The notes under the pieces are model-generated. The model did not search any database. It was not told the origin of the DNA and worked only from the letters and a program-made list of their open reading frames with translations. The position numbers and the translations under genes are program-made. A stretch of DNA of 64,000 nt from Patescibacteria group bacterium (GTDB lineage: Bacteria; Patescibacteriota; Microgenomatia; UBA1400; PJMF01). This document shows positions 25,008 through 53,825 of this stretch, in pieces; within the stretch, counting starts at the first letter, position 1, and each line of letters starts with the position of its first letter. Where the stretch lies: positions 13,373 to 77,372 of the forward strand of contig JBMORQ010000015.1 of assembly GCA_049322575.1 (NCBI GenBank), in the 5' to 3' direction.

Positions 25008-26975
25008 ATGACTTTTAACGATTTTGCTTTGCTGCTTGAAGAACTAGAAAAAACCCCATCTCGTCTGGAGATGACGGCTTTATTAGCTCAACTTTTTTCC
25101 AGGTTAGAAAAAGAAGAAATTGCACCCACTTGTTACCTGTTGCAAGGTCGACTAGTTCCTCAATATCAATCTCTCGAGTTTCAGTTGTCAAGCAAAATGT
25201 TGGTTAGGGTTTTGGCAAGAATAAAAGCTGACTTAACCGATTCAAGGGCAGATAATTTTGGCGGGGCAGTTGGTGATTCCCAGACAAAGGCTCCAGCTTC
25301 AAAAGCAGTATCTTTGGATCTGTTTAATCAACCTGACTATTCCAGTTTGGAAAAGGCAGTTGACAGCGAATATCGGCAAATTGGTGATCTTGGCTTGTTG
25401 GCGGAAAAAATCATTAATCAATTTAGAGCTCAGTCGTCAGTTTTATCACCAAGACTAGATAATGTGGATATTTCTCAAACTGGGGGAGGTCAGACCATTC
25501 TCCAAGTATTTGACAGCTTGCAGCAAGTTGCCAAACAAGGCGGTGAGGGGTCACAAGATCGAAAGGTCAATCAAATGGTTGAACTTTTGAGAAAAAATGA
25601 CCCGGTGGCAGCCAAGTTCATCGTTAGAATAATCTTGGGTAAATTACGACTAGGTTTTTCCACCATGACCATGATGGACGCCTTGTCTTGGCAAAGACGA
25701 GGCGACAAGTCTGACAGTGGTCTGCTTGAAGAAACGTACCAAAAACGTGCCGACATTGGTCAACTGGCAGAAGTTTATTTAACGGCAGAAGGCGAAGAAG
25801 GGCTAAAAAGAGCTCTAGAGCAGTATTCTGTTAAAGTGGGCGTGCCGGTAGTTCCCTCTCTTTGTCAGCGCCTCAATTCAGCCACTGAAATTATTGAGAA
25901 ACTGGGCCAAGTCATCGCTGAGCCAAAATATGATGGTCTACGAGTGCAGATTCACTTGTCTAAGGAGGCTTGTTATGCGTTTACACGCAACCTGGAAGAT
26001 GTTACGCACATGTTCCCGGAAATTCAAAAAATGCTTCAAGTTTTGAGCGCTCAGAGCTGTATTTTAGATGCTGAGGCAATTGGCTTTAGTCTTGAATCTG
26101 GTAAATTGCTCACTTTTCAAGAAACCATTACTCGCAAGCGCAAGCACGACATAGAGCAACAGGCACAGAAAGTGCCAATCCGTTTTTATATCTTTGACGT
26201 GTTAAGTTTAAATGGGCAATCGCTCATCGATTTGCCTCTATTTGAACGCAAACAAAAACTAGCTCGACTTTTTACCGACAACGATTTTATGGTTAAGGCA
26301 CCTTTTGTTGAAACAAATTCCGCAACCGAGCTAAAACAATTTCATGAGGAACAGTTGGCTTTAGGCCTTGAAGGAGCTGTGATGAAAAAGGCAAACAGTA
26401 AATATCGCAGCGGACGCAAGGGTTGGCGTTGGGTTAAGATCAAAGAGGAGGAAGGATCGAGGGGCAAACTTAATGACACGCTTGATTGTTTAGTGATGGG
26501 TTATTATTTTGGTCGTGGTAAAAGGACACAGTTTGGCATCGGCGCCTTTCTGGTGGGTGTGTTGGGTGGTGGGGGTGAAAACGCAACTGAGTTGCGTCAT
26601 CCGAAGACCACCGACAAATCCGATGAATCGATTCTAGCCGAGGAAGCTTATGACCAGTCGCAAAAAGTTCTGACTATTGCAAAAATTGGCACAGGGCTGA
26701 CTGATGAACAGTTTCTTGAATTCAAAAAACGAGTTGCGGGTAACGAAATGATCGATAAGCCAGTTGTTTATGAAGTGGAAAAAAACCTGATGCCTGACAA
26801 ATGGATTAGTCCATTTTTAGTAGTTGAAATTGCAGCCGATGAAATAACAAAGTCGCCAGTTCACACCGCGGGGGTTGCATTGCGTTTTCCACGACTGGTT
26901 AGATTCCGTGACGACAAAAGTTGGGAAGAAACCACTACTTTGGATGAGGTCAGAACAATTGAAATTGCCAAATAA
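25008..26975 (+). CDS. ATP-dependent DNA ligase
   Basis: The adenylation motif I (KYDGLRVQIH, matching KxDGxR), a downstream FDVL/EGAV nucleotidyltransferase and OB-fold architecture, and a length of 655 aa. Confidence 0.8.
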   Translation: MTFNDFALLLEELEKTPSRLEMTALLAQLFSRLEKEEIAPTCYLLQGRLVPQYQSLEFQLSSKMLVRVLARIKADLTDSRADNFGGAVGDSQTKAPASKAVSLDLFNQPDYSSLEKAVDSEYRQIGDLGLLAEKIINQFRAQSSVLSPRLDNVDISQTGGGQTILQVFDSLQQVAKQGGEGSQDRKVNQMVELLRKNDPVAAKFIVRIILGKLRLGFSTMTMMDALSWQRRGDKSDSGLLEETYQKRADIGQLAEVYLTAEGEEGLKRALEQYSVKVGVPVVPSLCQRLNSATEIIEKLGQVIAEPKYDGLRVQIHLSKEACYAFTRNLEDVTHMFPEIQKMLQVLSAQSCILDAEAIGFSLESGKLLTFQETITRKRKHDIEQQAQKVPIRFYIFDVLSLNGQSLIDLPLFERKQKLARLFTDNDFMVKAPFVETNSATELKQFHEEQLALGLEGAVMKKANSKYRSGRKGWRWVKIKEEEGSRGKLNDTLDCLVMGYYFGRGKRTQFGIGAFLVGVLGGGGENATELRHPKTTDKSDESILAEEAYDQSQKVLTIAKIGTGLTDEQFLEFKKRVAGNEMIDKPVVYEVEKNLMPDKWISPFLVVEIAADEITKSPVHTAGVALRFPRLVRFRDDKSWEETTTLDEVRTIEIAK

Positions 26976-35191: not shown

Positions 35192-37534
35192 ATGAGAAAC
35201 ATATCCACTCCAGAGCAGATGGCAGAAAAAGCAATGGGCGTTGTTTTTGGCCTATTTATGCTTGTGTTCTTGTTGGCTGCACTGATAGGAATTGCTTACT
35301 TATTATTTCTTTGGTTGAAGCGTCGCAATCGCGAAAACTACGCTCTGGATTTTGTTACCCTCATGATCCGGTTACCAAAAGACAACGAGATCAAGGTCGA
35401 TGCTGCTGAGCAGATGTTTGCCAGTCTTTTCTCTCTTAAAAAATCTGGCTGGATGGCCTTCGCCAAACCTGAAGAGGTGATTAGCTTTGAGATTGTGGCA
35501 CTCAAGGAATACATCGCATTTTATGTTTGCTGTCCCAAACGCATCCGTGATCTGGTAGAAAAACAAATTCAGGGCGCATATCCTCAAAGTGATATTAAAC
35601 AGGTGGATGAAGTTAATATTTTTAATGAAAATGGTAGGGTGGCCTTCGCCGATATTAAGTTGTCGAAGTCCAAGTATTTACCCATTAAAACCTACAAAGA
35701 TTTGCCAACCGATGGTTTGTCTTTGATAACTTCTGCTATGTCCAAGATGGGCGATGGTGAAGGTGCAATTTTGCAGTTTCTCTTCCAGCCCGAAGGCCAT
35801 AAATGGCAGGTTGCTGGGCGCTCCTACATGCAAAAAGAGAAAAAACGTGAGGCAGATCCAGACAAGGCGAGTTATAACCATGATCCTAAAGAAATGGAGG
35901 CGATAGGTAATAAGATTGAAAAGCCAGGATTTCGGGTAGCGATTCGAGCGGTGGTTTCGTCGCCCAACGAAATGATGGCTAAATCTCATTTGGAAAACAT
36001 TGTTGGAGCTTTTTCTCAGTTTACTTCTGCTTACAACAACTTTGGCAAACACATTCCTTTTTTTAAACACTTTTTCATGATCGATTTTATTTATCGTTAC
36101 ATGCCTTTTTTTGATCGCAATGTTTGCACTTTGAACACTGAGGAATTTGCCACGGTTTTTCATCTGCCAAATAAAACAGTTGCGACACACCACATCCAAT
36201 GGTTAACCGCAAAAAATGCCCCTGCACCAAACAATATTCCCAATCAAGGTTTGTATTTAGGCAAATCGATGTATCGTGGCGAAGCCCGTGAGGTTTTCAT
36301 GGACATCAACGACAGGCGTCGACACATGTACATTATTGGAAAAACCGGTACCGGTAAATCAGAGTATTTGAAAGAAATGATTTTACAGGATATTGAAAAC
36401 GGTTATGGAGTTTGTGCTATCGACCCCCATGGTGAGTTTGTTGAAGACATCTTACAACTCATGCCACCAGAGCGCGCCGAAGACGTAATTTATTTTAACC
36501 CCTCGGATTTGGAGAGGCCGATGGGCTTGAACATGATGGAGGCCGACACCGAGGAGCAGCGTCATTTTGTGGTGAGCTCGATCATCGGCTTGATGTATAA
36601 GCTTTACGATCCTCACCGCACTGGTATCATTGGTCCCCGTTTTGAGCACGCTATCCGCAACGCCATGTTAACTGTCATGAGCCGAGAAAACTCAACGTTT
36701 ATTGAGCTAGTGCGTTGTTTGACCGATCAAAAATTTGTTGAAGAAATGCTGCCTTATGTTAAAGACCCGGTGGTGAAACGCTATTGGACGGATCAGATCG
36801 CTCAGACCTCAGACTTTCACAAATCGGAAGTTTTGGATTACATCGTTTCCAAGTTTGGCCGCTTTGTAACTAACAAAACCATGCGTAATATTATTGGTCA
36901 AACTCAAAGTGCTTTTAATTTCCGCAAGGCCATGGACGAGAAGAAAATTATTTTGGTTAATTTATCCAAGGGTATTTTGGGCGAGGAAGACGCCAAGTTT
37001 TTAGGTTTGATTTTGGTGCCAAAAGTCCTGACTGCGGCCATGAGCCGTCAAGATGTGCCGATGGATCAACGCGAAGACTTTTTCCTTTATGTTGACGAGT
37101 TTCAGAACTACGCCACCGAGGATTTTGCTACGATCTTGTCCGAGGCGCGTAAATATCGTTTAAATCTAATCGTGGCTAACCAGTTTATTGGTCAGATTGA
37201 CGAAGAGATCAAGAATGCGGTTTTTGGCAACGTTGGCACGATTGTCTCTTTCCGCGTGGGTGTGACTGATGCCAACTTTTTGCAACACGAGTTTGCGCCA
37301 GTTTTTAACGAAAACGACCTGACCAACATCGAGAAATTTCACGTATACATCAAGACAATTGTTAAGAACGAACCAGTTGAAGCCTTTAGTATGTCGCTGC
37401 AAAAAGACATGGACGCGCAACAGGCTCGGATGAATCCCAAATTGGCGGAAATGATCAAAGAACTCTCGCGCTTGAAATACGGCAAGGACCGCTCGGTCAT
37501 TGAGGCCGACATGCAGGTGCGGGCGAAGTTGTAG
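35192..37534 (+). CDS. VirD4/TraG-family type IV coupling protein-like ATPase (T4CP)
   Basis: An N-terminal transmembrane helix, a Walker A motif (IIGKTGTGKSEY) followed by AIDPHGE (compare the xxDPKGD of TrwB/VirD4), a Walker B motif (FFLYVDEFQNY), and the T4CP-like LIVANQFIGQI motif (the Q-x-x-x-Q-L family). Confidence 0.6.
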   Translation: MRNISTPEQMAEKAMGVVFGLFMLVFLLAALIGIAYLLFLWLKRRNRENYALDFVTLMIRLPKDNEIKVDAAEQMFASLFSLKKSGWMAFAKPEEVISFEIVALKEYIAFYVCCPKRIRDLVEKQIQGAYPQSDIKQVDEVNIFNENGRVAFADIKLSKSKYLPIKTYKDLPTDGLSLITSAMSKMGDGEGAILQFLFQPEGHKWQVAGRSYMQKEKKREADPDKASYNHDPKEMEAIGNKIEKPGFRVAIRAVVSSPNEMMAKSHLENIVGAFSQFTSAYNNFGKHIPFFKHFFMIDFIYRYMPFFDRNVCTLNTEEFATVFHLPNKTVATHHIQWLTAKNAPAPNNIPNQGLYLGKSMYRGEAREVFMDINDRRRHMYIIGKTGTGKSEYLKEMILQDIENGYGVCAIDPHGEFVEDILQLMPPERAEDVIYFNPSDLERPMGLNMMEADTEEQRHFVVSSIIGLMYKLYDPHRTGIIGPRFEHAIRNAMLTVMSRENSTFIELVRCLTDQKFVEEMLPYVKDPVVKRYWTDQIAQTSDFHKSEVLDYIVSKFGRFVTNKTMRNIIGQTQSAFNFRKAMDEKKIILVNLSKGILGEEDAKFLGLILVPKVLTAAMSRQDVPMDQREDFFLYVDEFQNYATEDFATILSEARKYRLNLIVANQFIGQIDEEIKNAVFGNVGTIVSFRVGVTDANFLQHEFAPVFNENDLTNIEKFHVYIKTIVKNEPVEAFSMSLQKDMDAQQARMNPKLAEMIKELSRLKYGKDRSVIEADMQVRAKL

Positions 37535-37551: not shown

Positions 37552-40500
37552 ATGCATGAAAAAATTGCTTATCAACCAAAGGATTCACAAAATTCTATTA
37601 GCTTGGCAAAAGAAGAGCTTGTTGTTTTGGAAGAGATTAGAAAGAAGATAGTTGCTGCTGACATCGATTTTAGACTCTCTACTGAGGATTATAAAAATCT
37701 CCTAGAATTGGGTCTTGATAAAAAATGCAACCTTTGGACGAGGAACGATTTACTGTCGGTAATAGTTCTTAGAATCAAGTTTATTTCTCAAGAAATCTTA
37801 GAAAAGACAGACGCAATAAATTTTTTTTCTGATGTAATAGGTAGTTCAGAGATGACCAATGATGGTGAGATTGTATTGCAAAAGGATGCTGATGGTATTG
37901 ACGGTGTTTGCAATAAGGTTCTTCAAAGTCTTGCAACTATTTTTCCAGACAATAAAAACGAGTTACAGGACAAATTGGCTTTTTCGGCAAATCATTTCTT
38001 ATCAATTGGCAATGCATTGGCCTATTTAGCGACGAGCAGTAATCCGACATTTTTTCAGCAAATTGAAACAGAGCTTTTAAATGAAAATCTGATTTGCAAA
38101 ATGAGAAGTGTTTGGTCGCAGGACATGAAAGATGCATTAAACGCCTGTCATCGCGAAAAGACAAAGGAGAGCTATCAGAGATTATTAAAGGCTTATCAGC
38201 GCGAAAAACCAAGGCTGATAGTGTTTTTATGTTTTGCAGTTTCTATGAGTATGTTTGAATCGACTGACCATGGTAATTTTGATAAGCATGCTGAAAGAAT
38301 TATAAAGGGTTTAGAGGACAGTAATTTTATTGGTTCGTTTGTTACTCATGCTGAAGTTATGCAAATTGTTGGAAGCATAGATGCTAATAAAAAACAAAAG
38401 GTTCAACCACAATTGGCGCAATATTTAAAATCGAAACTTGAGAGCGGAGAAATAAACTCTGGGTTTGCGCTCGAAATTTTTGCTTCTGCAAAGAATGGCT
38501 CATCTCTTTTAGAAAGTCCTAGTTTTATCAGATTTTTTGCTGAGATGGAATCATTTTTGATGGATGATTATCTAATTAAAGAAAATGATGCTAAACAAAG
38601 ACTGAGAATTAATCCAAATGTTAGGGCGATTGCCTCATTATTATTGTTGTCAATGTTTTTTGTTGGTGATTCAAAAACATATAGCAGACCTCAGTTACAG
38701 TTAGATTTTGGTAGGTTTTTCCCGATAACCATGAACGTTTTTGGTGGCTTGGAAGAAGGAATCGATACGGTAATCCAAAGGGTTAAGTTTGAAGATAAAA
38801 AAGAAGACGTTGTTGTTGAAGAAAAAAAAGAAACGGTTTCGGTAGAATCTTTAGGTATTGACCCAAAAGCTGTTAATAGCTCTGTGGAAGGACTGGATCA
38901 GGAGTCAGATAGGCAACATGAGGCCGCTCAAAAACTTGCCAATGAACTAGGTGAAAAAGATATCAACGAGTTTTTAATCGATTCTCCCGCTAGCCCAAGT
39001 AGTTTATCGAAATTTCAAACCGGGGCTGTCTCTGCCGAGGGTTATATTGCAACAGGTTATGAGGTTGGTTGTACTTTTAGGAAATCAAGTAGTAGCTCAA
39101 TCGGTTTTTTTAGTAAGGTTTTGTATGACAAAATAGATCCTGGTTCTGGAGAATTTGTTTCAAGCTGGAGTCCATCCAACGAAATTCCCCAGGAGCTTGA
39201 GCAGATTCCAATGATTGTTGCTTCTAGTGGAATGGAAATAATAATTTGCAAATTGTCCGAATTGCAGCCGAATAATTGGTACAGCATCGCAACTACCCCA
39301 TCTCGTTCAGTAGTGCGTGGTCAACTTGTTGCAGATAATCAAGGTGATCAAATTTTGATTCCGATTGAGGTTGTTAAAGATCCAGAAAGTACAACAAGTT
39401 TTTTTAGAATAAATGAAAAATATAAAGAAGATCTTAGCCGGTCGTCTGATTTCCAATTGGTTTATGAACTTGGAGACCCCTTTGATTATCCCCAAAAAGA
39501 AAAGGATGACGGGGTGCCGTTTCTGGACAGAGAATATATTGATCCGGCAATTATGCAAATAATTGACCAGCTCAATGCTGATAAGAATATGGACGAATAT
39601 GAGAAGCTAGTTGTGTTGCGTAAGGCCATGCAAAATTATGGAATATATAGTGTTGATCCAAAAAATGATCAAGATAAGTATTTAGCAGAATTTGTTGGAA
39701 AAGTTGATGCTGCCACTTATACAAAGCTGCGATATTCTTTGTATTTTGGTCAATATGAGCGATTTGGTTTAACGTCCGATACTGGTCCAGTCAAAGGTGC
39801 TGGCGAATGTAATAGATCAAATGGAGCAGCGTTTTTAGCCTTTGAGCATCTTATACTAAACGACTGGAAGATTCGCTTAAGAAGTGGTGACGTGATCTCT
39901 GAAAATGAAAAATATGGTTTTGCTGGATCTGGCCATATTTATATTGAAGCGGTCAACATTAAAAATGGCGAAATAATAGACCTTGATACAACATCTTCTA
40001 ATATAGATGCATACACCCAATCTTTGAGAGCAAAAGGACACGATCCATCAGTGGCCTTTGATGCAAATTTTGAACAATTAGCTAGTGGGACGTTAACAAT
40101 TACTGACTATGATTACAGTAATTATGTAACACCCGATACTTCACTTAACATAGAAGTAGCCTTGATCAGAAAGTCAGAGTGGGGCTGGCCTGTTACGCTT
40201 GATGATGAACTTCTTGCAAAAATTAATACTCCAGACAATTTCATTAATTATAATGATTGGTTTTCTCCTGATAAACTCAAGAAATGGATTGTAAATAGTA
40301 ACTATGGTTATGAGATTAATGTGGCAGATGAGGATGGTGGTGTTGATTACTGTATGCCGGTTTTTAGCAAAAATGATGGATTTACGACTCAAATTACTCC
40401 AGATTCAGTGCTAACTGATGGAATAATTAAAAATAAATTTTTAATTGAAAGAGTCGCTGACAAGGCTATGAAAATGAGGCGTGATTTTGTTGTTGAAATA

Positions 40501-42597
40501 AATGGAACCAACATGTTTCCTTTACCGATTCTTTGGTATGTATCAGTTCCGAGTATACGTTTGAGCACTCCTGATGGTGAGCCAGTAGAAATACAGTTAG
40601 TTGGAATAAAGAATTATGATCAGCCATTTATTTTAATTACCGACCCCAAATATATCGATAGCAAAGAAAGCAATGTTTTCATTTTAAGTTATCTATCTGG
40701 GGCGCTTACTGATAACCGTGATTTTTCTGCAGGAACTTATAAATATGGGTCAGTTGAGCCTCGAGATTTTTATGAAGCTAGGACCAGACTAGAAAATCTG
40801 GGCTTTTCTACTAACGACGCTGAAAGTGCAATTCTCGCAGCTAGAATCATCCAAATAAATGAGCTTTTGGGATCGTCAATCAAATATGGAGAGTGGCAAG
40901 GCAGAGATTTGATTTTCAACAACCTTCTTTCTTTGCAAGCGGACGCACAAGAAATGAATAATGAAAATGCGATTGTTTATGTTGGTGAGCTTTTAAAACT
41001 ATTTAAATTTGCAGATGATTTCATAACATTTTACAGTTCACTAACTAATGAAGAAAAAATGAATGTAAAAATATCAAGTCAATTAAAAATTATTATTGAG
41101 TCGGTTGACTGGCAATTGCTTAAATTAGAAACACCTACTAGCTTCGTAGGAACCGACGATGAAATAATTTATTATGTTGGCGCTGAAAAGATTGAGTATG
41201 TTGACTCACTTTTCTCATATATTTTTTCCTCGTTTTCCCAGCTCATGCCGTCAGAAGGATCAGTTAAGCCATTCACTTCTGGAAAAAGCTCAGAATCAGA
41301 GAATAATCTCAATAACTATTGTGCTGGTGTGTCAATTGATTTTAATGATTTAGCAGCTTGTCAGCTTCAATCACCATTTTTACCGAGTGGTGATGAAATG
41401 GTTAGTGCTATACGAAGAGCAATATTTAACATTGATGATGACTCACCAGTTTTTGAATTATTTTTTCATGATTATAATCCAGTAGAAATTATTAGAGGCA
41501 ATGATGTTATGGCTTCATTACCACTCTCTCAATTTACGCTTGATGACGAAGACGTCGCAGGCGGGATATTTCTTAAAGATGGCAGTGTGGGACCATCATC
41601 TTTTCTCCTTAACAATTCAAGGGCAGACTTATCATGGTGGCAGTATTTCCTTGATAATGAGAAAGGCAATTACAGTGAAGATCAAATTGTCACGCTCTAC
41701 GACACATTGATTAATGTTATCTCTGAGGATCCCGAAAGATATCTTGCTCAGGAACAGTTGCAGAGTCTCAGCGAAGAAAACAAGCAAGAGTTAATCAATA
41801 GATTGCAGGAAAGAGAATTAGAAAAAGTAAAGTTTCTATTTGAGCACATTTGTCGTTCGTTAGTAAAAGGTAACTATAAAGTTTGGAGTTCTTATTTAGC
41901 ACTTCTTTTGCCATTGGCAGCTGGTGCTTATGGTGCCATGCGTTGGCATGCTGAAACATATGATTGGAAGAGGAAGCGATTAAAAAGTATTGAGCTTGAA
42001 AAAGAACTTAAGTTGATTAGTGAAACCTTCAATTTGGAGATTGATTTAGTACGTGCCCATTTTGAAGATCTTGCCAAATCTAGGTCGATGGTTTTAGCCT
42101 TATCCGGAAATGTGAATCCGGAAAATGGCGAATATGATCATCTAAATTTACTGAGACGCTTGGTTGTTACTGCTCTCAAAACCACCGGAGAGACCAGGAT
42201 GCCTTTTAATCTGGGTTTTGAATCAGAGGCAAATAATCCATGGTCAAGCCACGACGTTCCGGCTACCTATTATTCTCATATTGATCAAGCAGTTAATGGT
42301 GGTCAAATTGAAGCAGTTGCATCACTTTGGCCAGACAACCATCAAGCGGCAGTGGTAAAGCAACTTGGCGAAATGTTTAAAGTTGGATCTGGAGGAAAAG
42401 TCATTTCTGCCAATGAGCAAGTTTTAAAAACCCCAGATCAATTTCAAAGACAATTATTGCTAAAAGCGATTGATGATTTACAAAAATCCGGCGTATCGGT
42501 GGAAAAATACCAACAGCAAGCTATTGAGCAAGTAGTTGCCTCTTGTGTTAAGACTTGGCAACAAATTATGATGGATTATCAAAGGATTAAATCATGA
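37552..42597 (+). CDS. Giant protein (1681 aa) of unknown function with an internal papain-fold (transglutaminase/CHAP/NlpC-P60-like) Cys-His-Asp core and a C-terminal transmembrane helix
   Basis: An uninterrupted ORF that starts 17 nt after the T4CP stop codon. At about nt 39780-39990 it encodes GAGECNRSNGAAFLAF...GSGHIYIEAV...IDLDTT, which matches a C-x(~40)-H-x(~15)-D papain-fold core. A C-terminal hydrophobic helix is present (VWSSYLALLLPLAAGAYGAM). Confidence 0.55.
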   Translation: MHEKIAYQPKDSQNSISLAKEELVVLEEIRKKIVAADIDFRLSTEDYKNLLELGLDKKCNLWTRNDLLSVIVLRIKFISQEILEKTDAINFFSDVIGSSEMTNDGEIVLQKDADGIDGVCNKVLQSLATIFPDNKNELQDKLAFSANHFLSIGNALAYLATSSNPTFFQQIETELLNENLICKMRSVWSQDMKDALNACHREKTKESYQRLLKAYQREKPRLIVFLCFAVSMSMFESTDHGNFDKHAERIIKGLEDSNFIGSFVTHAEVMQIVGSIDANKKQKVQPQLAQYLKSKLESGEINSGFALEIFASAKNGSSLLESPSFIRFFAEMESFLMDDYLIKENDAKQRLRINPNVRAIASLLLLSMFFVGDSKTYSRPQLQLDFGRFFPITMNVFGGLEEGIDTVIQRVKFEDKKEDVVVEEKKETVSVESLGIDPKAVNSSVEGLDQESDRQHEAAQKLANELGEKDINEFLIDSPASPSSLSKFQTGAVSAEGYIATGYEVGCTFRKSSSSSIGFFSKVLYDKIDPGSGEFVSSWSPSNEIPQELEQIPMIVASSGMEIIICKLSELQPNNWYSIATTPSRSVVRGQLVADNQGDQILIPIEVVKDPESTTSFFRINEKYKEDLSRSSDFQLVYELGDPFDYPQKEKDDGVPFLDREYIDPAIMQIIDQLNADKNMDEYEKLVVLRKAMQNYGIYSVDPKNDQDKYLAEFVGKVDAATYTKLRYSLYFGQYERFGLTSDTGPVKGAGECNRSNGAAFLAFEHLILNDWKIRLRSGDVISENEKYGFAGSGHIYIEAVNIKNGEIIDLDTTSSNIDAYTQSLRAKGHDPSVAFDANFEQLASGTLTITDYDYSNYVTPDTSLNIEVALIRKSEWGWPVTLDDELLAKINTPDNFINYNDWFSPDKLKKWIVNSNYGYEINVADEDGGVDYCMPVFSKNDGFTTQITPDSVLTDGIIKNKFLIERVADKAMKMRRDFVVEINGTNMFPLPILWYVSVPSIRLSTPDGEPVEIQLVGIKNYDQPFILITDPKYIDSKESNVFILSYLSGALTDNRDFSAGTYKYGSVEPRDFYEARTRLENLGFSTNDAESAILAARIIQINELLGSSIKYGEWQGRDLIFNNLLSLQADAQEMNNENAIVYVGELLKLFKFADDFITFYSSLTNEEKMNVKISSQLKIIIESVDWQLLKLETPTSFVGTDDEIIYYVGAEKIEYVDSLFSYIFSSFSQLMPSEGSVKPFTSGKSSESENNLNNYCAGVSIDFNDLAACQLQSPFLPSGDEMVSAIRRAIFNIDDDSPVFELFFHDYNPVEIIRGNDVMASLPLSQFTLDDEDVAGGIFLKDGSVGPSSFLLNNSRADLSWWQYFLDNEKGNYSEDQIVTLYDTLINVISEDPERYLAQEQLQSLSEENKQELINRLQERELEKVKFLFEHICRSLVKGNYKVWSSYLALLLPLAAGAYGAMRWHAETYDWKRKRLKSIELEKELKLISETFNLEIDLVRAHFEDLAKSRSMVLALSGNVNPENGEYDHLNLLRRLVVTALKTTGETRMPFNLGFESEANNPWSSHDVPATYYSHIDQAVNGGQIEAVASLWPDNHQAAVVKQLGEMFKVGSGGKVISANEQVLKTPDQFQRQLLLKAIDDLQKSGVSVEKYQQQAIEQVVASCVKTWQQIMMDYQRIKS

Positions 42598-44432
42598 CAG
42601 AAATACATCATCCGAGACTTGATTTTGATGGGGGCAATGATTCTAGAGCAAGAGCAGAACAGGATTGGGTTATTGCCGAGGCTACTAGAAGAACTGAACA
42701 GGGATCTGATTTCATTGTTACGCCTCATGCTCGTGAAAAACTTAATCGATTAAAGGAAGCATTCCGAAGAGGTAATAGAGTTGTAATAGTTGAAGGTCCA
42801 CCTGGTACGGGTAAGTCTCAACTTTTATACCAACTAGTGATAGAGCTCATGAAAGAGAATCCCGAAATTTTGGGTTATAGCAGGACTCAGGGAGCTCCGG
42901 GTTTAATTTCTGCTGATTTATTAGTTCAGCCAAGAGTTACACCCAAAACTAGCGCTGAAGATAATACTTTTCAGGCATTAGAAAACAATCAGGAATTGAT
43001 GGACAAAATAATTGGGGAGTATGTCCAGCTTTCTATTGGTGGTTTTTTAAATAACTTACCACCCGATGTTCGAAGACAAAAGATAGACTTATTTTTAAAA
43101 AAGATTGGGGTAAAAGGAGCTTTTTCTGAAACGGGTGAGCTTATTCTGGAAGAAGACCAATCGGAGTTTTTACAATTTTTAGAAGACAAAAGACTTCGTC
43201 AAAATTTGGGACCATTGGTTGATAAGAAAATTCTAGCACTGGCTATGGAACTGGGTTTATTGGTAATTATTGACGAGGCTAATATGGTCCGTACACCAAA
43301 TGGACTGGGATTGCAGGGACTAGAAAATGCTTTTACGGTCAAGCCCGGGGAAATATTTAATTTTGATGGCCTGTTTGTTATAGTTGATAAAGTTTTTGGT
43401 GTATTTATGACAACCAACAGTATTGACGAAATTTCGCCAGCAATTGCTAGGTTTGGTAGATCAGGTCATTTGACAATGAACGCTGACTCCGGAGATATGG
43501 CTGCTGCAGCAAGAGTTTTATTAACCGATGAAAAAGGTAAGTTTATTCTGTCAGAAAGAAAAAGAGATGAATCGGAATTGTGTAGGTTAATATGGTGGCT
43601 TGAGGACCTAAATTTAGAGGGAATAGATGTTAGCTTGAACTTAGTGACTCCGCTTTGTAAATTGATGGCAGAGGGTATGGATTTTAGGCAAGCATTTCAG
43701 CAGATAGTACAAAGCTTAAAAAGGGAAGAAAAGGATTATTTAATATCTAGAATTCGAGGCTCATTTCAAAGTACAGCTGGCGAGGATGAGGAAGCCTTTG
43801 GCCGTCAATCACTATCACAACTAAATTGTTTATACAACTCTGATGTTTTTGGTAATGAAAGGAAGGAAGCTCTTGTTGATTCTGGTTTTCGTGCTGAGTT
43901 TAATCAGACAACCGGAACGTGTTTTGTCACCGATGGAAACAACTCCGTTATTACAGAACACCAGTTTAAGATAGATGGATCAATCACTAAGCAGATCTCG
44001 TCTCCAGATGGAAAACTTCTTATAATGAATTCTGAAGGTGGATTGATTGTTATTGATACAGTTTTAATGCAGGCAATTCCAGTTTTGGATTCTAAACAAA
44101 TCGGTAAAGACTCAGAAAACATTGGTAATGAACGAGGCTTGAGAAATATCGAGGTTCATGAATTTTGTTGGGCAAACCATAATCAGCTGTTGGCCGTAAT
44201 TAAACGAGGCTCAAACTGGGAAGTGGCGCTTTTTTCAAAAGTGAAACAAAGAGCTGAGGCTGGTGAGTCGCCGATATCATTTCTCAAGATTGAAGAATCA
44301 AGAAAAATTGAACAACCTCAGAATGTGCTCGTAGAGGGCAAGCAGTTGATCGTTGATGATTATTTATACTCAGTTAATCAGGACGACCTTCTTAACCCAT
44401 TAGCGCGAAAAAAATTTAGCAATGCTAGTTGA
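42594..44432 (+). CDS. AAA+ ATPase (AAA_5/MoxR/McrB-like class)
   Basis: The start codon overlaps the giant gene's stop codon (ATGA). It carries a Walker A motif (VVIVEGPPGTGKSQL), a Walker B motif (LLVIIDEANMV) and a sensor-like ARFGRSGH segment. Confidence 0.7.
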   Translation: MTEIHHPRLDFDGGNDSRARAEQDWVIAEATRRTEQGSDFIVTPHAREKLNRLKEAFRRGNRVVIVEGPPGTGKSQLLYQLVIELMKENPEILGYSRTQGAPGLISADLLVQPRVTPKTSAEDNTFQALENNQELMDKIIGEYVQLSIGGFLNNLPPDVRRQKIDLFLKKIGVKGAFSETGELILEEDQSEFLQFLEDKRLRQNLGPLVDKKILALAMELGLLVIIDEANMVRTPNGLGLQGLENAFTVKPGEIFNFDGLFVIVDKVFGVFMTTNSIDEISPAIARFGRSGHLTMNADSGDMAAAARVLLTDEKGKFILSERKRDESELCRLIWWLEDLNLEGIDVSLNLVTPLCKLMAEGMDFRQAFQQIVQSLKREEKDYLISRIRGSFQSTAGEDEEAFGRQSLSQLNCLYNSDVFGNERKEALVDSGFRAEFNQTTGTCFVTDGNNSVITEHQFKIDGSITKQISSPDGKLLIMNSEGGLIVIDTVLMQAIPVLDSKQIGKDSENIGNERGLRNIEVHEFCWANHNQLLAVIKRGSNWEVALFSKVKQRAEAGESPISFLKIEESRKIEQPQNVLVEGKQLIVDDYLYSVNQDDLLNPLARKKFSNAS

Positions 44433-45042
44433 ACAAAGAGAAGAACCGATTTTTTCTACTATTGATAGTTTTAGGCAGTATTTTAAAGCCATTCAAGATA
44501 GAGGCCATGTAAGTAATGTTGATTATCGTTCCAGGCCTAATGTCAGTGAATTGTGCCGTGCAGCAGTAAAGTCAATGATCACTGGAATTGAAATTAGACC
44601 TGAAGCACAAGGATTACAGTCGAGAGAGATTGTCAAAAATAATGAGGTGATCATAATTTGCCAACGATATTTACTACCTGCTCTGGAGGAAATAAAACGC
44701 GCTGGCAATAAACATGGAATTGATGTAAGTTTTATAACAATCGAGCAAGTTTATAGTCCTATGGGAGTGAGTGTTTGGCGAGTTCATTTTCCAGGTGACG
44801 AATCCAATTTTGATTTACCTTTTGCCGAGTACAGTCATCATAAACTGGGTGATGTTATGGCACTTGCAAAAAATTTTCCACAATTGAACAAAACCATTGG
44901 GGATAAAAATGTTTTTGTTGTTGGTCCCAGACCAACTTACGATTCAGGTGTAGAACTTAAAGCGGTTGCATTAAAGAAAATGAAAAACAGAAATGGTAGC
45001 TATTGGCACGAGATCGGTCAAAATGGCTTTTCTGAGTTCTAG
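44422..45042 (+). CDS. Hypothetical protein (206 aa), the last gene of the T4CP-giant-AAA+ operon
   Basis: An 11-nt overlap with the AAA+ gene; no family was recognised. Confidence 0.4.
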   Translation: MLVEQREEPIFSTIDSFRQYFKAIQDRGHVSNVDYRSRPNVSELCRAAVKSMITGIEIRPEAQGLQSREIVKNNEVIIICQRYLLPALEEIKRAGNKHGIDVSFITIEQVYSPMGVSVWRVHFPGDESNFDLPFAEYSHHKLGDVMALAKNFPQLNKTIGDKNVFVVGPRPTYDSGVELKAVALKKMKNRNGSYWHEIGQNGFSEF

Positions 45043-45054
45043 CGCAGTTTATAG

Positions 45055-45798
45055 TTACTCTCCCAACCCCGCATGGGTATAAACTTTGGGCCCGTTAGAA
45101 CCAAAACCTGCCTCCGACATCTTTTTCTTTCTCCAAATCACGATGGCGGCCGCAACCAGCAGGCCGGCAAACAGAGAAAGTCCCACCACAACTCCCAGAT
45201 AGTTGGTGTTGGCAGCTTGATTTGTGGGTGGGTGCTGTGGAAAGGTTTCGGTTTTTGCTGCTCCGGTTGTAACACTCTTGCTTGGGGTGGCACTGGGCGT
45301 AGCGGTTTTAAGGTTGGCGCTGGCGGTGGAATTTCCCAGAATGCTGCCGTCAGCGGCACGGGAGGTTATCTCGGTGCTGGTAAAACGAATTTTTCCTGAT
45401 TCATCAATGACAAAACGCTTGGTAAATTTATAAATCTTGTCGTCTGCGGTTAGGGCCTGCAAAATTAAGGTTCCACTGGCAGGATCGTGCAAAAACTGAT
45501 CTCCGCCAGACTCAGTGCCTGCTAAGACAACCTCAGAGAAAACATTCTTAGTGTCTGCCTTGCCAGCTCCCCCCAGGCCGTTCTCGACTGCTTCTAAAAC
45601 CTCGTCGGCACTCGTGTTTGGATCAGTGCCCGTGTTTGTTGACAGGCTTGTCAAGTTGGCGGAAGCAGTGGCCTCACCTGGTTTGGGCAAACGAAGTTTG
45701 TAGGTTAACTGATATTCTACCTCAAGAACGTTGTAGGCCCCAATCGAAAACTCGTGGGTGTCTTTGTTGTAGGTGAGGGTAATGGTTGGTTTGCTCAT
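45055..45798 (-). CDS. Ala/Thr/Gly-rich surface protein with a C-terminal transmembrane anchor
   Basis: A C-terminal hydrophobic helix (LGVVVGLSLFAGLLVAAAIVIW) followed by RKKK, low-complexity T/S/A-rich stretches, and elevated GC content. Confidence 0.45.
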   Translation of the reverse strand: MSKPTITLTYNKDTHEFSIGAYNVLEVEYQLTYKLRLPKPGEATASANLTSLSTNTGTDPNTSADEVLEAVENGLGGAGKADTKNVFSEVVLAGTESGGDQFLHDPASGTLILQALTADDKIYKFTKRFVIDESGKIRFTSTEITSRAADGSILGNSTASANLKTATPSATPSKSVTTGAAKTETFPQHPPTNQAANTNYLGVVVGLSLFAGLLVAAAIVIWRKKKMSEAGFGSNGPKVYTHAGLGE

Positions 45799-48343: not shown

Positions 48344-49351
48344 TTGCATCGACAACAATCAACCTTGAAGTTATACTTCACACTTATGAAGTACAAACAT
48401 CTGGAAAAAACCAGCGAGATTGACAGAAAATTGCAACGGCTTTTACAACAGGTTCCATACGGTGCGAAATATTTGGCTGGCTTGATGGACTGGTTTAGCA
48501 TCGAACTGACTTATACCTCCAACGCACTCGAAGGCAACACCCTTACCAGGGCAGAAACAGCATTGGTGATTGAAAATGGCTTGACGACAGCGGGAAAAAC
48601 GATTCGCGAACATCTTGAAGCGATTAATCATGCCCAGGCTTTTGAATTTATAAAAAACAAAGTCGATCAATCAACTCAAGAACATAAAAATTTAGATGAA
48701 GATGATATTCTTAAAGCTCATCGCCTCATTTTGCAAAAAATTGATGATCAAAATGCTGGTCGCTATCGAAACGTTCCAGTTAGAATTTCGGGGTCGAGGG
48801 TAGTCATGCCCAATGCCGCTAAGATACCAGATTTAATGTCGGAGTTGGTTGCCGATTTTGGCAAGTCGAAGCAACATGTCGTTACTCAAGCAGTCGATTT
48901 TCACTTGCGTTTGGTGTCAATTCATCCATTTCTTGATGGCAATGGCCGCGTGGCCAGATTGATGATGAATTTTTGGCTCATGATGTATGGTTATCCGCCG
49001 CTAATAGTTTCCAAGGAGGTGCGCAGGCAATATCTTTCAAGCATTGAAAAAGTACAACTTGGTGGCTCATCTGCCGATTATTACAACCTCATGTACCAAG
49101 CCATGAATTATTCGCTGGATATTTGTCTAGAAAATTCCCAGCAACAAGAAAAGCTCCGCCAGTTAAACAAAAAATCTTTATTAAAAATTGGTGATTTTGC
49201 CAATCTGTCTTCTGAAACTGTGCCAACTATCCGCTATTGGACCAAGCAGGGATTAATTGATGTAGACGATTATTCTAGGGGTGGTTATCAGCTTTATTCA
49301 CCAAGTGCTATCAAAAGAACTAAGAAAATTCGCCAACTTCAGAAAAATTAA
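48344..49351 (+). CDS. Fic-family protein fused to a C-terminal MerR-type HTH
   Basis: The class II inhibitory motif TSNALEGN (matching [ST]xxxE[GN]), the Fic motif HPFLDGNGRVARLM, and a C-terminal segment IGDFANLSSETVPTIRYWTKQGLID...GGYQLY typical of the MerR N-terminal HTH. Confidence 0.8.
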   Translation: MHRQQSTLKLYFTLMKYKHLEKTSEIDRKLQRLLQQVPYGAKYLAGLMDWFSIELTYTSNALEGNTLTRAETALVIENGLTTAGKTIREHLEAINHAQAFEFIKNKVDQSTQEHKNLDEDDILKAHRLILQKIDDQNAGRYRNVPVRISGSRVVMPNAAKIPDLMSELVADFGKSKQHVVTQAVDFHLRLVSIHPFLDGNGRVARLMMNFWLMMYGYPPLIVSKEVRRQYLSSIEKVQLGGSSADYYNLMYQAMNYSLDICLENSQQQEKLRQLNKKSLLKIGDFANLSSETVPTIRYWTKQGLIDVDDYSRGGYQLYSPSAIKRTKKIRQLQKN

Positions 49352-50611: not shown

Positions 50612-51823
50612 CTACTCATACCTCAACGCCTCAATGGGTGAGAGTTTTGATGCGCGACGAGCCGGAGCGGCGCCAAAAACCAGTCCCACCACCGTTGAAA
50701 CGCCAAAGGCCAAGCCCACGGCTGTCATGGTAACTTTGGCTGGGAAATATGGTTGGATTAGTGCCGAGCCCAGGAACGCCAAGCCCAAGCCGATCAAGCC
50801 GCCTAAAATAGACAAAAACGCCGCCTCGATTAGAAACTGCAGCAGGATCTGGTTAGGTGTGGCACCCAGGGCCTTACGCAGTCCAATCTCGCGTGTTCGT
50901 TCGGTCACTGAGACAAGCATGATGTTCATAATACCGATGCCACCCACCAAAAGTGAAATAGCTGCGATGCCACCCAGACCAACTGTAAAGGCTCCCAAGA
51001 TCTGATTAATCGTATCCAGAATTTCGGACTGGTCAAAAACGCTAAACTCTTTGTCCTCCAGGCGCTGGGACAGCAGATCCTCTATGGCTTTGATTGCCTC
51101 AGGCATGACGTCTTTGTTTTTAGCCTTGGCCATGATTTCCATGATGGTATTCTTGTCGTAAATGTTGGAAAAAGTGCTAAACGGGATAAAAACATAAGTG
51201 TCAAAGGACGGCCCGCCGAAGCCACTCCCTTGCTTGTCAGCCACGCCCGCCACCACAAAAGTTTGGTTGCCAATCTTAATTCTCTTGCCAACTGGATCTG
51301 ATTCGCCAAAAAGTTTGTTGGCAATTTCATAGCCTAAAACAGCTACTCTTTTGCTGGATAAATCATCGTTTTTACCAAAAAAACTATCTTTTTCTGTGAC
51401 AGATTTCATGATGTCTTGATATCGATAGGTGGTGCCCACCACCGAGACGGTTTTGGTTTCATCACGATATGATGCTTTATCTGAAGCGGTATTGATTGGT
51501 ACGGCAAATAAAATAAACTCTCGCAAACCCTCGATGTCGTTGACGTCGCTCATTTTCAGCTTGCTGTTACTGAAACTTGCCGTTTGGCTTTCTCGATTAA
51601 ATCCACCATCTTCGCCAAAAATATCACCAGGATAAATGAAAATATTGCTTGACCCCAGGCTCTCAAATTGCTCGGTAACGTAGGCCTGTAGGCCGTTGCC
51701 GATGGCTGTGAGCATGGTGACGGAAAAAACACCGATGATGACGCCCAAGACCGTTAGAAAACTCCTGACTTTATTGGTGATGATGGCTCGTAGGGCTATG
51801 ATAAAAGTGTTTTGAACTGTCAT
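50612..51823 (-). CDS. ABC transporter permease, MacB/FtsX family
   Basis: An N-terminal transmembrane helix, a large periplasmic-type domain, then a C-terminal FtsX-like four-helix bundle (the GLRKALGAT motif). Confidence 0.85.
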   Translation of the reverse strand: MTVQNTFIIALRAIITNKVRSFLTVLGVIIGVFSVTMLTAIGNGLQAYVTEQFESLGSSNIFIYPGDIFGEDGGFNRESQTASFSNSKLKMSDVNDIEGLREFILFAVPINTASDKASYRDETKTVSVVGTTYRYQDIMKSVTEKDSFFGKNDDLSSKRVAVLGYEIANKLFGESDPVGKRIKIGNQTFVVAGVADKQGSGFGGPSFDTYVFIPFSTFSNIYDKNTIMEIMAKAKNKDVMPEAIKAIEDLLSQRLEDKEFSVFDQSEILDTINQILGAFTVGLGGIAAISLLVGGIGIMNIMLVSVTERTREIGLRKALGATPNQILLQFLIEAAFLSILGGLIGLGLAFLGSALIQPYFPAKVTMTAVGLAFGVSTVVGLVFGAAPARRASKLSPIEALRYE

Positions 51824-51824
51824 C

Positions 51825-52646
51825 TTATCTTTTTTTCTTGGTGTATTGATCAGACTTTGTCAGCTTGCTGTAATCAATGGTTTGGGTTTTGTCCAAAACT
51901 TCATTGTTTAGTTTTAGGCAATGTGCCGATTGTTGCGAAGAGCCAGGTTTTCTGGTGTCGGAAACAATCTCACCGTCTTTGATCACCACTCTTCGTTTGG
52001 CGATTGAGGCGACTTCATTTTCATGGGTAACTAGAATAATGGTTTTGCCCTCCTTGTTAAGCTTTTTGAGGATTTTTTCGACTTCCAAACCGCTTTTGGA
52101 GTCCAAGTTACCGGTTGGCTCATCAGCAAAAATTATGCTTGGGCTGTTAACCAAGGCTCTGGCGATAGCTACGCGTTGCTGCTGGCCTCCGGAAAGCTGT
52201 GAGGGGGTGTTGTTAAGTCGATCTCCTAGCCCCAGCAGCTCGAGGGCCTCCTTGGCTCGGCGGCGGCGCTCTCTCTCGGGCACGTTGGCATAAAGGAGGG
52301 GCAGGGCCACATTGTCGACAGCCGAGGTTTTAGCAAGCAAGTTAAATTGCTGAAATATAAAGCCAATTTCTTTGTTACGCAACTGAGCTCTCTCGACCTC
52401 ATTGTACTTTGTGACGTCCTTTTCGCCTAAATAAATCTGGCCACTCGAAGGAGCTGCCAACATGCTGGCGATTTGCAGAAAAGTTGATTTTCCTGAACCA
52501 GAAGGACCCATGATCGCCACAAACTCGCCGCTTTCCACACAAAGAGAGACCTGGTTAAGGGCGCGAATCACTTGATCGCCAAGGTGGTAAACTTTGGAGA
52601 CTTGCTTGAGCCGAAGAATGGGTTTAGTACGATTTTTTCCAGACAT
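51825..52646 (-). CDS. ABC transporter ATP-binding protein (MacB/LolD-type)
   Basis: A Walker A motif (GPSGSGKST), the ABC signature LSGGQQQRVAIARAL, and a Walker B motif (IIFADEPT). Confidence 0.9.
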   Translation of the reverse strand: MSGKNRTKPILRLKQVSKVYHLGDQVIRALNQVSLCVESGEFVAIMGPSGSGKSTFLQIASMLAAPSSGQIYLGEKDVTKYNEVERAQLRNKEIGFIFQQFNLLAKTSAVDNVALPLLYANVPERERRRRAKEALELLGLGDRLNNTPSQLSGGQQQRVAIARALVNSPSIIFADEPTGNLDSKSGLEVEKILKKLNKEGKTIILVTHENEVASIAKRRVVIKDGEIVSDTRKPGSSQQSAHCLKLNNEVLDKTQTIDYSKLTKSDQYTKKKR

Positions 52647-52715
52647 GATTATTACTTTTTTGCAGATGTGCCTTTTGCGACATATAACAGAGATTTTTTT
52701 GGTTAACGACTAGAG

Positions 52716-53825
52716 CTACTGAGGAATCCTTACCTCGTCAGACTCAGATAGGCCGGCAGTTACTTCCACAAAGTCGTCGGTCTCGAGGCCGATTTCAATC
52801 TCTCGTTCAGCGAACGATTCTCCATTTGTCCTCACGTCAACATAATTTTTATTGTCGCGTTGGCGGATGGCATCGATCGGCACGGTCAAAACATTGCTCT
52901 TGCTTGTGACGAGTATCTGAGCATCACCGTTCATGCCTAGACGGTATTTTTCCAGGCTGCTGTTGTTGGGAAAGGGCATTTCGATGATAAAAGAGGTGCC
53001 GCTGGATGTTTCGGTACTCTTGTAGGAAATGAACTTGACAAAGCTGTCAACTGTTTCGTCCGGATAGGCATCAAGGGTGATATAGGCCGATTGACTGGCC
53101 ATGACCTGGGCGATCTCGGCTTCATCAACCAGTGCCTTAAAAATCAGGCTACCGGGATTGATAACCTCAAATGAGTCGGTGGCCAGTAATTGCACACCCT
53201 TAACATTAGTTGGTGATTCAATCAAAACCCCTTCAATGGGCGAAGATAAAACCGTGTTACGGATAGCGATGTCACGAATTTCCACATCGAGAACCTCGTT
53301 TTCCAGATCCCACTGATTTTGATCAACCGAGCGCTGCTCGCGCTTGTCGATAGTGCGATCCTTGATGTCATCGAGTTGCTGATCCCAGTCCCAGCGTTCT
53401 TTCATGTAGTTGTTGAGATCCTGTTGCAGACGCTTGTTAAGATCAGCTTGGTCGATCGTGGCTAGGGTTTGGCCTTTTTTGATCCAATCGCCTTCTTGCG
53501 CCCCCAGATAAACGACTTTACCACCAGCCGCGAAGCGTAGACTGGCTTTTTCTTTGGCGTCAATAATTCCTGAGATTTCGAGGTATTTAGTTAAATCTTG
53601 TCTGACAGGATGCTCAAAGACCTCTGGAGTTTTTAAAGACGCTTGCCTTAGCTGCCATCGCCAAACTACAAAAAGAATTAAAGCGATTATGAGCAACCAC
53701 CAAAATTTTGATTTCACAAAGCCTAATGTCAAACGACCAGCTTTGCGAACGAGGGCTAAAGCTTTCATAAATAACCAGTTTAATGCATCGACAAAGGAAA
53801 AGCTAGGATTTTGTTTGCACAACAT
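52716..53825 (-). CDS. Periplasmic adaptor / membrane-fusion protein (HlyD/MacA family)
   Basis: An N-terminal transmembrane anchor followed by coiled-coil and lipoyl-like segments; it lies upstream of the ABC ATPase and permease in one operon. Confidence 0.75.
   Translation of the reverse strand: MLCKQNPSFSFVDALNWLFMKALALVRKAGRLTLGFVKSKFWWLLIIALILFVVWRWQLRQASLKTPEVFEHPVRQDLTKYLEISGIIDAKEKASLRFAAGGKVVYLGAQEGDWIKKGQTLATIDQADLNKRLQQDLNNYMKERWDWDQQLDDIKDRTIDKREQRSVDQNQWDLENEVLDVEIRDIAIRNTVLSSPIEGVLIESPTNVKGVQLLATDSFEVINPGSLIFKALVDEAEIAQVMASQSAYITLDAYPDETVDSFVKFISYKSTETSSGTSFIIEMPFPNNSSLEKYRLGMNGDAQILVTSKSNVLTVPIDAIRQRDNKNYVDVRTNGESFAEREIEIGLETDDFVEVTAGLSESDEVRIPQ

Follow-up and report, generated by a model that had tools for sequence, protein, structure and literature searches.

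The window analysed here is a stretch of 64,000 nucleotides from a Patescibacteria group bacterium (contig JBMORQ010000015.1 of assembly GCA_049322575.1, positions 13,373 to 77,372). On its forward strand, at 37552..42597, the list of open reading frames (ORFs) and their translation give a giant protein of 1681 amino acids (aa). We propose that this protein is anchored in the membrane, that it carries a divergent transglutaminase-like domain with a Cys-His-Asp triad in its outer loop, and that it is linked to an AAA+ ATPase. For this reading as a whole we estimate a probability of roughly 0.65. The product is identical to ACOZAN_01605, a hypothetical protein of a Patescibacteria metagenome-assembled genome (MAG) in NCBI.

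The peptide that carries the candidate catalytic residues, GAGECNRSNGAAFLAFEHLILNDWKIRLRSGDVISENEKYGFAGSGHIYIEAVNIKNGEIIDLDTT, is read on the forward strand in the frame of the giant ORF. The predicted nucleophile is Cys753 (codon tgt, 39808..39810), in the motif G-A-G-E-C-N-R-x-N. His795 (codon cat, 39934..39936; motif G-S-G-H) is the predicted general base and Asp812 (codon gat, 39985..39987; motif (L/I)-D-(V/T)-T) the predicted third residue of the triad, all on the forward strand. The spacing is C-x41-H-x16-D, i.e. 42 and 17 residues. In the window protein the Asp context reads D-L-D-T-T, and D812 is the second D of DLD. By itself a C...H...D pattern is easily obtained by chance, because the 1681 residues include 13 Cys, 18 His and 121 Asp; it is the conservation of these residues across 14 diverged sequences that makes the pattern non-random.

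These 14 sequences are the giant protein and 13 distant homologues, all found in a single exhaustive HMMER run, in which aa 480-1150 were searched with phmmer against 1.84 billion cluster representatives. The homologues are 1570-1918 aa long and are 24-32% identical to the queried region, and the matched stretch covers the region of the triad in all 13. When the 14 sequences are aligned with MAFFT, the mean pairwise identity across the full length is 21%. Faster searches added little. A k-mer-indexed search with the full giant protein returned only the protein itself, and those with the family profile (A1) and with the domain of one homologue (P0014) gave nothing new, at most a self-match. Scanning GTDB genomes and JGI metagenomes for the pattern GAGECNR[RS]N added one Woesebacteria locus (L008) and one fragment; this Woesebacteria MAG is the only named lineage among the homologues. 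Neither the giant protein nor the excised region matched Pfam, NCBIfam, PADLOC, PHROGs or PDB sequences. Judged by these searches, the giant proteins are an unannotated family present in a few Patescibacteria and missed by current profile libraries.

In the MAFFT alignment C753, H795 and D812 are invariant in 14/14 sequences. No Cys other than C753 and no His other than H795 is invariant, and D812 shares this property with a single other Asp. Other invariant residues close to the triad are G751, N757, T814, D819 and T822, and the signature of the family can be written approximately as L-N ... Y-S ... G ... G-A-G-E-C-N-R-R-N ... L ... A-H ... L-D-V-T-x-A-P-x-T-D-x-x-T. Of the 19 invariant columns, 13 fall within aa 655-850, a segment that makes up 11.7% of the length (binomial P = 1e-8), so that no part of the giant protein is more constrained than the candidate catalytic core. 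The original prediction for this DNA, made from the letters alone, had recognised the Cys and the His in their contexts, both of which are confirmed in frame, and had named their conservation in orthologs as a check, which both residues pass. It had placed the Asp about 15 residues after the His; the residue at that distance, D810, is variable in the family, and the conserved Asp is D812, 17 residues after.

To describe the fold, residues 655-850 were modelled with AlphaFold2 (AF2) from the 14-sequence alignment. The model has a mean predicted local distance difference test (pLDDT) score of 86.8 and a predicted template modelling score (pTM) of 0.82. Cys753 (model residue 99) opens a helix (99-110), His795 (model residue 141) lies at the beginning of a strand (140-148), and Asp812 (model residue 158) is found two residues beyond another strand (154-156). 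As modelled, this arrangement of Cys, His and Asp is the hallmark of papain-like and transglutaminase-like enzymes.

The model was compared with the PDB using Foldseek, and 11 of the 12 top chains belong to the transglutaminase-like clan. The best match is the transglutaminase 4xz7 (E=7e-3, prob 0.99), followed by LapG (4u65_E, prob 0.97). Also among the top chains are 3isr, a putative cysteine protease of Cytophaga, arylamine N-acetyltransferases (NATs) and Rad4/XPC, and lower in the list are human TG2, TG3 and PNGase. 4xz7 is a Transglut_core enzyme of Streptococcus suis, and LapG (C93), TgpA, PeiW/PeiP and acetyltransferases form one papain-like superfamily cluster (PMC10318531, PMC5612097). 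The same 4xz7 structure was recovered again, with prob 0.93, when a larger model of aa 476-1100 was used as the query. No meaningful match was found in the BFVD library of viral structures.

Profile searches with the relatives point in the same direction. P0014 matches the Pfam family Transglut_core (PF01841) along nearly the whole profile (positions 13-106 of 108), with 20.8 bits and E=4.7e-4. A second homologue, P0003, matches the Rad4 transglutaminase-like domain (E=0.028) across the His-Asp hairpin, and these two are the only matches to papain-clan Pfam families listed for the 14 domain sequences. The score of P0014 is the best of the 14 for PF01841, and none of them reaches its gathering threshold of 23 bits. 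A bridge to bona fide transglutaminases was also sought from the P0014 domain; phmmer against PDB sequences gave chance matches and tblastn against plasmids gave none. On sequence grounds the family appears as superfamily-level kin of Transglut_core in the Pfam clan Peptidase_CA, outside the Pfam family as now defined.

Taken with the conservation, the AF2 model and the fold matches, we consider it very probable that aa ~660-830 (39529..40041, forward strand) form a transglutaminase-like, i.e. papain-fold, catalytic domain. The original prediction had proposed a papain-fold Cys-His-Asp core, with profile searches and structure prediction as the means to examine it; both were run, and the core is supported by conservation and by matches to papain-fold enzymes of the transglutaminase-like clan. 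Of the types it had listed, transglutaminase agrees with the fold matches and with the Pfam match of P0014. CHAP and NlpC/P60 do not: no member of the family matches CHAP (PF05257) or NlpC-P60 (PF00877) in Pfam at E<=10, and no such chain is found in the Foldseek top 50 from the PDB.

The catalytic core is preceded directly by a beta-sandwich-like domain (aa ~495-645; 39034..39486, forward strand), which is all-beta in the larger model (aa 476-1100, mean pLDDT 64.6), with pLDDT 75-87, and has a conservation of 0.40-0.44. In this larger model the core is followed by a low-confidence linker at ~831-961 and by a further beta-rich domain at ~974-1050. Foldseek searches with this model also gave local matches of ~90 residues inside M1 aminopeptidases (ERAP1, IRAP and aminopeptidase A; prob up to 1.0).

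Hydropathy predicts two transmembrane segments in the giant protein, both encoded on the forward strand. The first (38608..38676) covers aa ~353-375, with the best 19-residue window at aa 353-371 and the core AIASLLLLSMFFV at aa 359-371. The second (41881..41937) is VWSSYLALLLPLAAGAYGA, aa 1444-1462, and is followed by a basic tail, MRWH..KRKR; in the family the basic side after this segment often shows an H-R-R-R-W motif. Both hydrophobic segments are aligned in 14/14 sequences. In the 15-residue flanks summed over the 14 sequences, Lys and Arg number 61 on the N-terminal and 24 on the C-terminal side of the first segment, and 25 and 66, respectively, for the second. From this bias, the positive-inside rule predicts a protein with the N-terminal ~350 aa in the cytoplasm, a loop of ~1070 aa outside that includes the enzyme domain, and the C-terminal ~220 aa again in the cytoplasm. 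The topology is thus inferred from hydropathy and charge bias only, and the enzyme domain is likely to be extracytoplasmic.

Inside the predicted outer loop, two Cys residues (aa 1257 and 1270; 41320..41361, forward strand) are conserved in 12/14 homologues. The pair fits an outside location and could form a disulfide. On another metagenome contig a DsbB gene lies directly downstream of the gene of one homologue (P0008).

The third element is the AAA+ ATPase. In the window the gene of the giant protein is followed on the same strand by a gene for a 612-aa AAA+ ATPase (42594..44432), whose start overlaps the stop of the giant gene by 4 nt, and then by a gene for a small protein of 206 aa (w206; 44422..45042), which overlaps the ATPase gene by 11 nt and has no Pfam match. 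Flanks could be read at seven other loci (L002, L003/L004, L005/L006, L007, L008 from the Woesebacteria MAG, and the contigs of P0008 and of P0007/P0010). In all seven a protein of 725-900 aa is encoded immediately before the giant gene, usually with a protein of 213-279 aa between them. In the five of these loci for which DNA could be compared (L002, L003, L005, L007 and L008) the large neighbours are homologous to the 612-aa protein of the window (phmmer E-values from 7e-27 to 3e-9; tblastn 1e-17 for L008). We conclude that the AAA+ ATPase is the conserved partner of the giant protein.

The order AAA+, small protein, giant is found in L003/L004, L005/L006, L007, L008 and on the P0008 and P0010 contigs, and in L002 no small gene was called between the other two. 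The order in the window is permuted to giant, AAA+, small. Even so, the AAA+ gene followed by a small gene with overlapping ends is an arrangement that the window shares with the other loci. A contig from JGI 3300050046 has two paralogous giants, P0007 and P0010 (1753 and 1782 aa), that flank a single pair of AAA+ (778 aa) and small protein (256 aa), and such a paired arrangement may explain the permuted order. The small proteins are fast-evolving and have no Pfam family; w206 is only the positional counterpart of the 213-279-aa proteins. Apart from the cassette, the surrounding genes vary by genome and are of housekeeping type; around the window cluster they include Lgt, DUF192, a GH3 hydrolase and a NUDIX protein, among others. 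A scan for promoters and terminators around the window cluster found sites no more numerous than in shuffled sequence.

An alignment of the AAA+ partners shows the motifs GPPGTGKS, hhhhDEADK and TAN and one invariant Arg. Several members score above the gathering score for Pfam AAA and AAA_5, and profile matches in the PDB are to modules of Cdc48, VAT, Lon and RFC. Between its two Walker motifs, A and B, the AAA+ module is interrupted by an insert of ~130-150 aa. The C-terminal third (aa ~400-612; 43800..44430 in the window), compared with the homologues from L002-L008, contains a conserved beta-rich motif, SPDG..L....SEG.L..ID.PT, which in sequence resembles beta-propeller blade repeats.

In the mechanism that we propose, the thiolate of Cys753 would be activated by His795, itself oriented by Asp812, and would attack the carbonyl of a peptide bond or of a side-chain amide to form a thioester acyl-enzyme. 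The thioester could then be resolved by water, as in a protease, isopeptidase or amidase, or by an amine, giving a transglutaminase-type cross-link. The giant protein would thus work on the outside of the cell as a thiol enzyme anchored in the membrane, and would cut or cross-link envelope or surface proteins or peptides, either of its own cell or of a partner cell; substrates of this kind are proposed because of the predicted outside location. Through the cytoplasmic domains of the giant protein, the AAA+ ATPase would probably assemble, gate, switch or reset the outer enzyme. Such ATP-driven control is suggested by the invariable AAA+ neighbour together with the two cytoplasmic domains, and we lean towards a functional coupling of the two proteins without much confidence. 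Such control would follow the scheme of MoxR-DUF58-TgpA operons and of wall hydrolases under FtsEX.

Among the possible reactions we place a protease or isopeptidase first, at slightly less than even odds, followed by cross-linking, which is possible and somewhat less probable. A peptidoglycan-peptide amidase is unlikely, and to the same degree so is any other reaction. An acetyltransferase of the NAT type was considered and rejected as unlikely, as acetyl-CoA would not be available on the outer side of the membrane, where the domain is predicted to be.

Several observations weigh against the reading of a membrane-anchored transglutaminase-like enzyme with an AAA+ partner. The giant protein of the window has no Pfam match, not even when the excised region is searched at E<=10, and the family profile A1 gives only chance matches to PDB sequences. 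The Foldseek E-values are marginal (7e-3 or worse, none below 1e-3), with query-normalised TM-scores of 0.37-0.40, and the placement of the triad is judged only from secondary-structure positions in the AF2 model. In the window protein the two predicted transmembrane segments are only weakly hydrophobic (KD hydropathy 1.3-1.5), and a signal peptide is absent. On the side of the neighbours, the ATPase is not demonstrably of MoxR type, with AAA_3 found in one member only at E=0.013. Pfam gives no DUF58 or vWA signal in the small proteins, and homology between w206 and the small proteins of the other cassettes is undetected (hhalign prob 0.3).

The alternative that survives best, though we regard it as quite unlikely, is that the cassette is a nucleoside triphosphate-dependent conflict system, for defence or offence, of the MoxR-vWA-effector kind. 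The thiol enzyme would be its effector, set free or activated upon an attack, e.g. a toxin-like deamidase or protease directed against proteins of a host or competitor. Ternary MoxR-vWA systems are tied to biological conflict in work cited in PMC12067865. Several features of the cassette fit this picture: it lies in a different genomic neighbourhood in each genome, the paralogous giants P0007 and P0010 stand in tandem on one contig, the sequences are extremely divergent outside the catalytic core, and the window also carries Fic/DOC genes at other positions. However, PADLOC does not match the giant protein and gives no more than generic P-loop matches for the ATPase, the vWA/DUF58 signal is missing from the small proteins, as noted above, and no immunity-like gene was recognised. 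Described VMAP effectors are soluble, and the two-transmembrane architecture with the enzyme in the outer loop is unlike them.

The domain could also be a non-enzymatic scaffold or binding module with a transglutaminase-like fold, as in Rad4/XPC, protein 4.2 and SirB1-type proteins, and the giant protein an adhesin or a structural protein of the envelope. Rad4/XPC chains are indeed among the fold matches, sequence similarity to active enzymes is very low, and most of the giant protein is fast-evolving in a manner like that of surface or adhesion proteins, with the 21% mean pairwise identity given above. Non-catalytic transglutaminase folds have generally lost the triad. Here, by contrast, it is invariant across 14 highly diverged sequences, and so are G751, N757, T814, D819 and T822, which makes the scaffold improbable.

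The last alternative follows from the original prediction, which had compared the domain with the VirB1 analogue of Gram-positive-type type IV secretion systems (T4SSs), a CHAP or lytic hydrolase that breaches peptidoglycan. In this case the domain would be a CHAP/NlpC-P60-type or other peptidoglycan hydrolase that opens the cell's own wall or that of the host. In favour of this is a gene that ends 17 nt before the giant gene starts and that is probably co-transcribed with it in the window. It encodes a 780-aa ATPase of the VirD4/HerA/FtsK class with one N-terminal transmembrane segment (35192..37534, forward strand). This ATPase matches DUF87 (7e-10) and TrwB_AAD_bind (1e-7) in Pfam; its matches to TraD/VirD4-like NCBIfam models are far under the cut-offs, and the match to phrog_5156, a phage family of unknown function (2.4e-94), is far stronger than that to any conjugation model. 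A VirB4/TraG-P-loop-like ATPase (13..1545, forward strand, at the window edge; PF19044 5e-26, AAA_10, DUF87) is encoded directly upstream of dnaA (1780..3285), and the two are the only clear T4SS-type ATPases in the window. The predicted extracytoplasmic location suits a wall hydrolase as well, and some transglutaminase-fold enzymes cleave peptides of the wall, among them PeiW and PeiP (C71), which PMC10318531 places together with Transglut_core.

Against this stands the gene neighbourhood. A tblastn search of loci L001-L008, to a distance of 10 kb from the giant gene, gave no homologue of the 780-aa ATPase, so this VirD4-like protein is not a conserved partner of the giant protein; the conserved partner is the AAA+ ATPase. 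The VirB4-like gene is 36 kb away from the giant gene, around which no genes for VirB6, VirB8 or a relaxase are found, the other neighbours being of housekeeping type. Profile scans detected no LysM, SH3, peptidoglycan-binding or lytic transglycosylase module in the giant protein, and CHAP and NlpC/P60 are missing from both Pfam and Foldseek results, as described above. A VirB1-like wall hydrolase is therefore not borne out and is the least probable of the three alternatives. The original prediction had also suggested an action on the host cell wall or on host proteins. Such an action is possible, since the domain is predicted to be extracytoplasmic, and for the cleavage of wall peptides PeiW and PeiP may serve as a precedent within the transglutaminase fold.

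The window contains further genes that may be of interest. Two Fic/DOC-domain proteins are encoded on the forward strand, one at 23885..24976 with a C-terminal DeoR-like helix-turn-helix (HTH) and one at 48344..49351 with a MerR-like HTH, likewise C-terminal; they may be toxin or AMPylation modules. At 25008..26975 (forward strand) there is a 655-aa ATP-dependent DNA ligase in which the domains N, M and C are all present. A Ser-, Thr- and Ala-rich protein of 247 aa (45055..45798, reverse strand), whose gene converges on the end of the cassette, has a C-terminal transmembrane anchor and a basic tail, WRKKKM, and looks like a surface-displayed protein. A DUF4012 protein of 1050 aa is found at 7444..10596 (forward strand), and an efflux pair of the MacB/FtsX and HlyD types at 50612..53825. 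Four ORFs of 412-764 aa on the reverse strand (54277..55515, 55531..57825, 61297..62694 and 62648..63943) have no Pfam family at E<=1e-4.

Patescibacteria, or Candidate Phyla Radiation (CPR) bacteria, have small genomes and a large share of genes without an assigned function, and how they build their envelope, attach to a host and feed is an open problem. For a hypothetical protein of 1681 aa there is now a candidate catalytic residue, C753, a delimited soluble domain at aa ~495-830, an obligate-looking AAA+ partner and a predicted outside location. Should the enzyme act on surface molecules of the host, it would be a candidate factor for attachment or feeding. A bolder version, which we hold to be unlikely, is an envelope machine specific to Patescibacteria and not described before, in which the AAA+ ATPase would drive or gate an ecto-transglutaminase or protease that tethers the episymbiont covalently to host-surface components or cuts these, with arms-race evolution around a fixed catalytic centre; it draws on the tandem paralogues and on the ~21% identity that surrounds an immutable catalytic centre.

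Among known systems, FtsEX offers a parallel to the proposed control. There a cytoplasmic ATPase switches extracellular papain-fold hydrolases through membrane helices (PcsB with CHAP; CwlO and RipC with NlpC/P60). The likeness is an analogy in the proposed principle only, that of an ATPase switching an outer Cys-His peptidase. FtsEX, in contrast, uses an ABC-type ATPase and its hydrolase is a separate CHAP or NlpC/P60 protein, and no relationship of the giant protein or its cassette to FtsEX was found.

LapG (BTLCP; MEROPS C93, PF06035) is the second-best fold match. It and the giant protein both have an extracytoplasmic transglutaminase-like Cys-His-Asp arrangement, predicted in the case of the giant protein, and LapG is a Ca-dependent protease that processes a surface protein. 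Its triad spacing is similar, with a His-to-Asp distance near 17. Unlike the giant protein, LapG is small, soluble and located in the periplasm, where the c-di-GMP receptor LapD controls it, and no member of the giant family matches PF06035.

CPR-C4 is, according to PMC9108980, a vasohibin-like cysteine protease of CPR with a Cys-His-Leu(carbonyl) triad that binds Zn. As described there, it resembles the present case as an unannotated CPR cysteine protease that was recognised only by remote structural similarity. It is not the same protein: by that description the triad differs and Zn is bound, and CPR-C4 is absent from the best 50 fold matches and from the sequence matches.

The gene order recalls the MoxR(MRP)-DUF58-transglutaminase syntax, with a polytopic membrane protein as the transglutaminase (PMC6803598, citing Wong and Houry 2012). 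Like TgpA and the bifidobacterial Tgm, the giant protein is predicted to be an integral membrane protein with a transglutaminase-like domain, and the order AAA+, small protein, transglutaminase is the same. The differences from MoxR-DUF58-TgpA are considerable. The ATPases are 612-900 aa long, have the insert between Walker A and B and the C-terminal beta-rich domain, and cannot be recognised as MoxR (AAA_3), a DUF58/vWA signal is missing from the small protein, and outside the fold no sequence homology is detectable. Compared with Tgm, the giant protein has 2 predicted transmembrane helices instead of up to eight and is two to three times larger. The resemblance to MoxR-type operons is therefore analogous or extremely remote, and membership is not supported. 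With the present family, the syntax of AAA+, small protein and membrane transglutaminase is extended into CPR.

Transglut_core itself (PF01841; 4xz7, 3isr) gives the giant protein its best fold matches. In both, the Cys stands where a helix begins, the His and Asp are in or beside consecutive strands, and the preceding helix (..EK..L..WF..YS..) aligns in P0014 to the N-terminal part of the Pfam model. Unlike Transglut_core proteins, the window protein and 12/13 homologues are under Pfam detection and have a signature of their own (GAGEC-N-R-R-N ... AH ... LDVT..P.TD..T), and the domain lies inside a two-transmembrane protein of 1600-1900 aa. The fold and the chemistry of a transglutaminase-like domain are already known; what is new is a sequence family invisible to profiles, its setting in a giant protein with two transmembrane segments, and its strict linkage to an unusual AAA+ ATPase.

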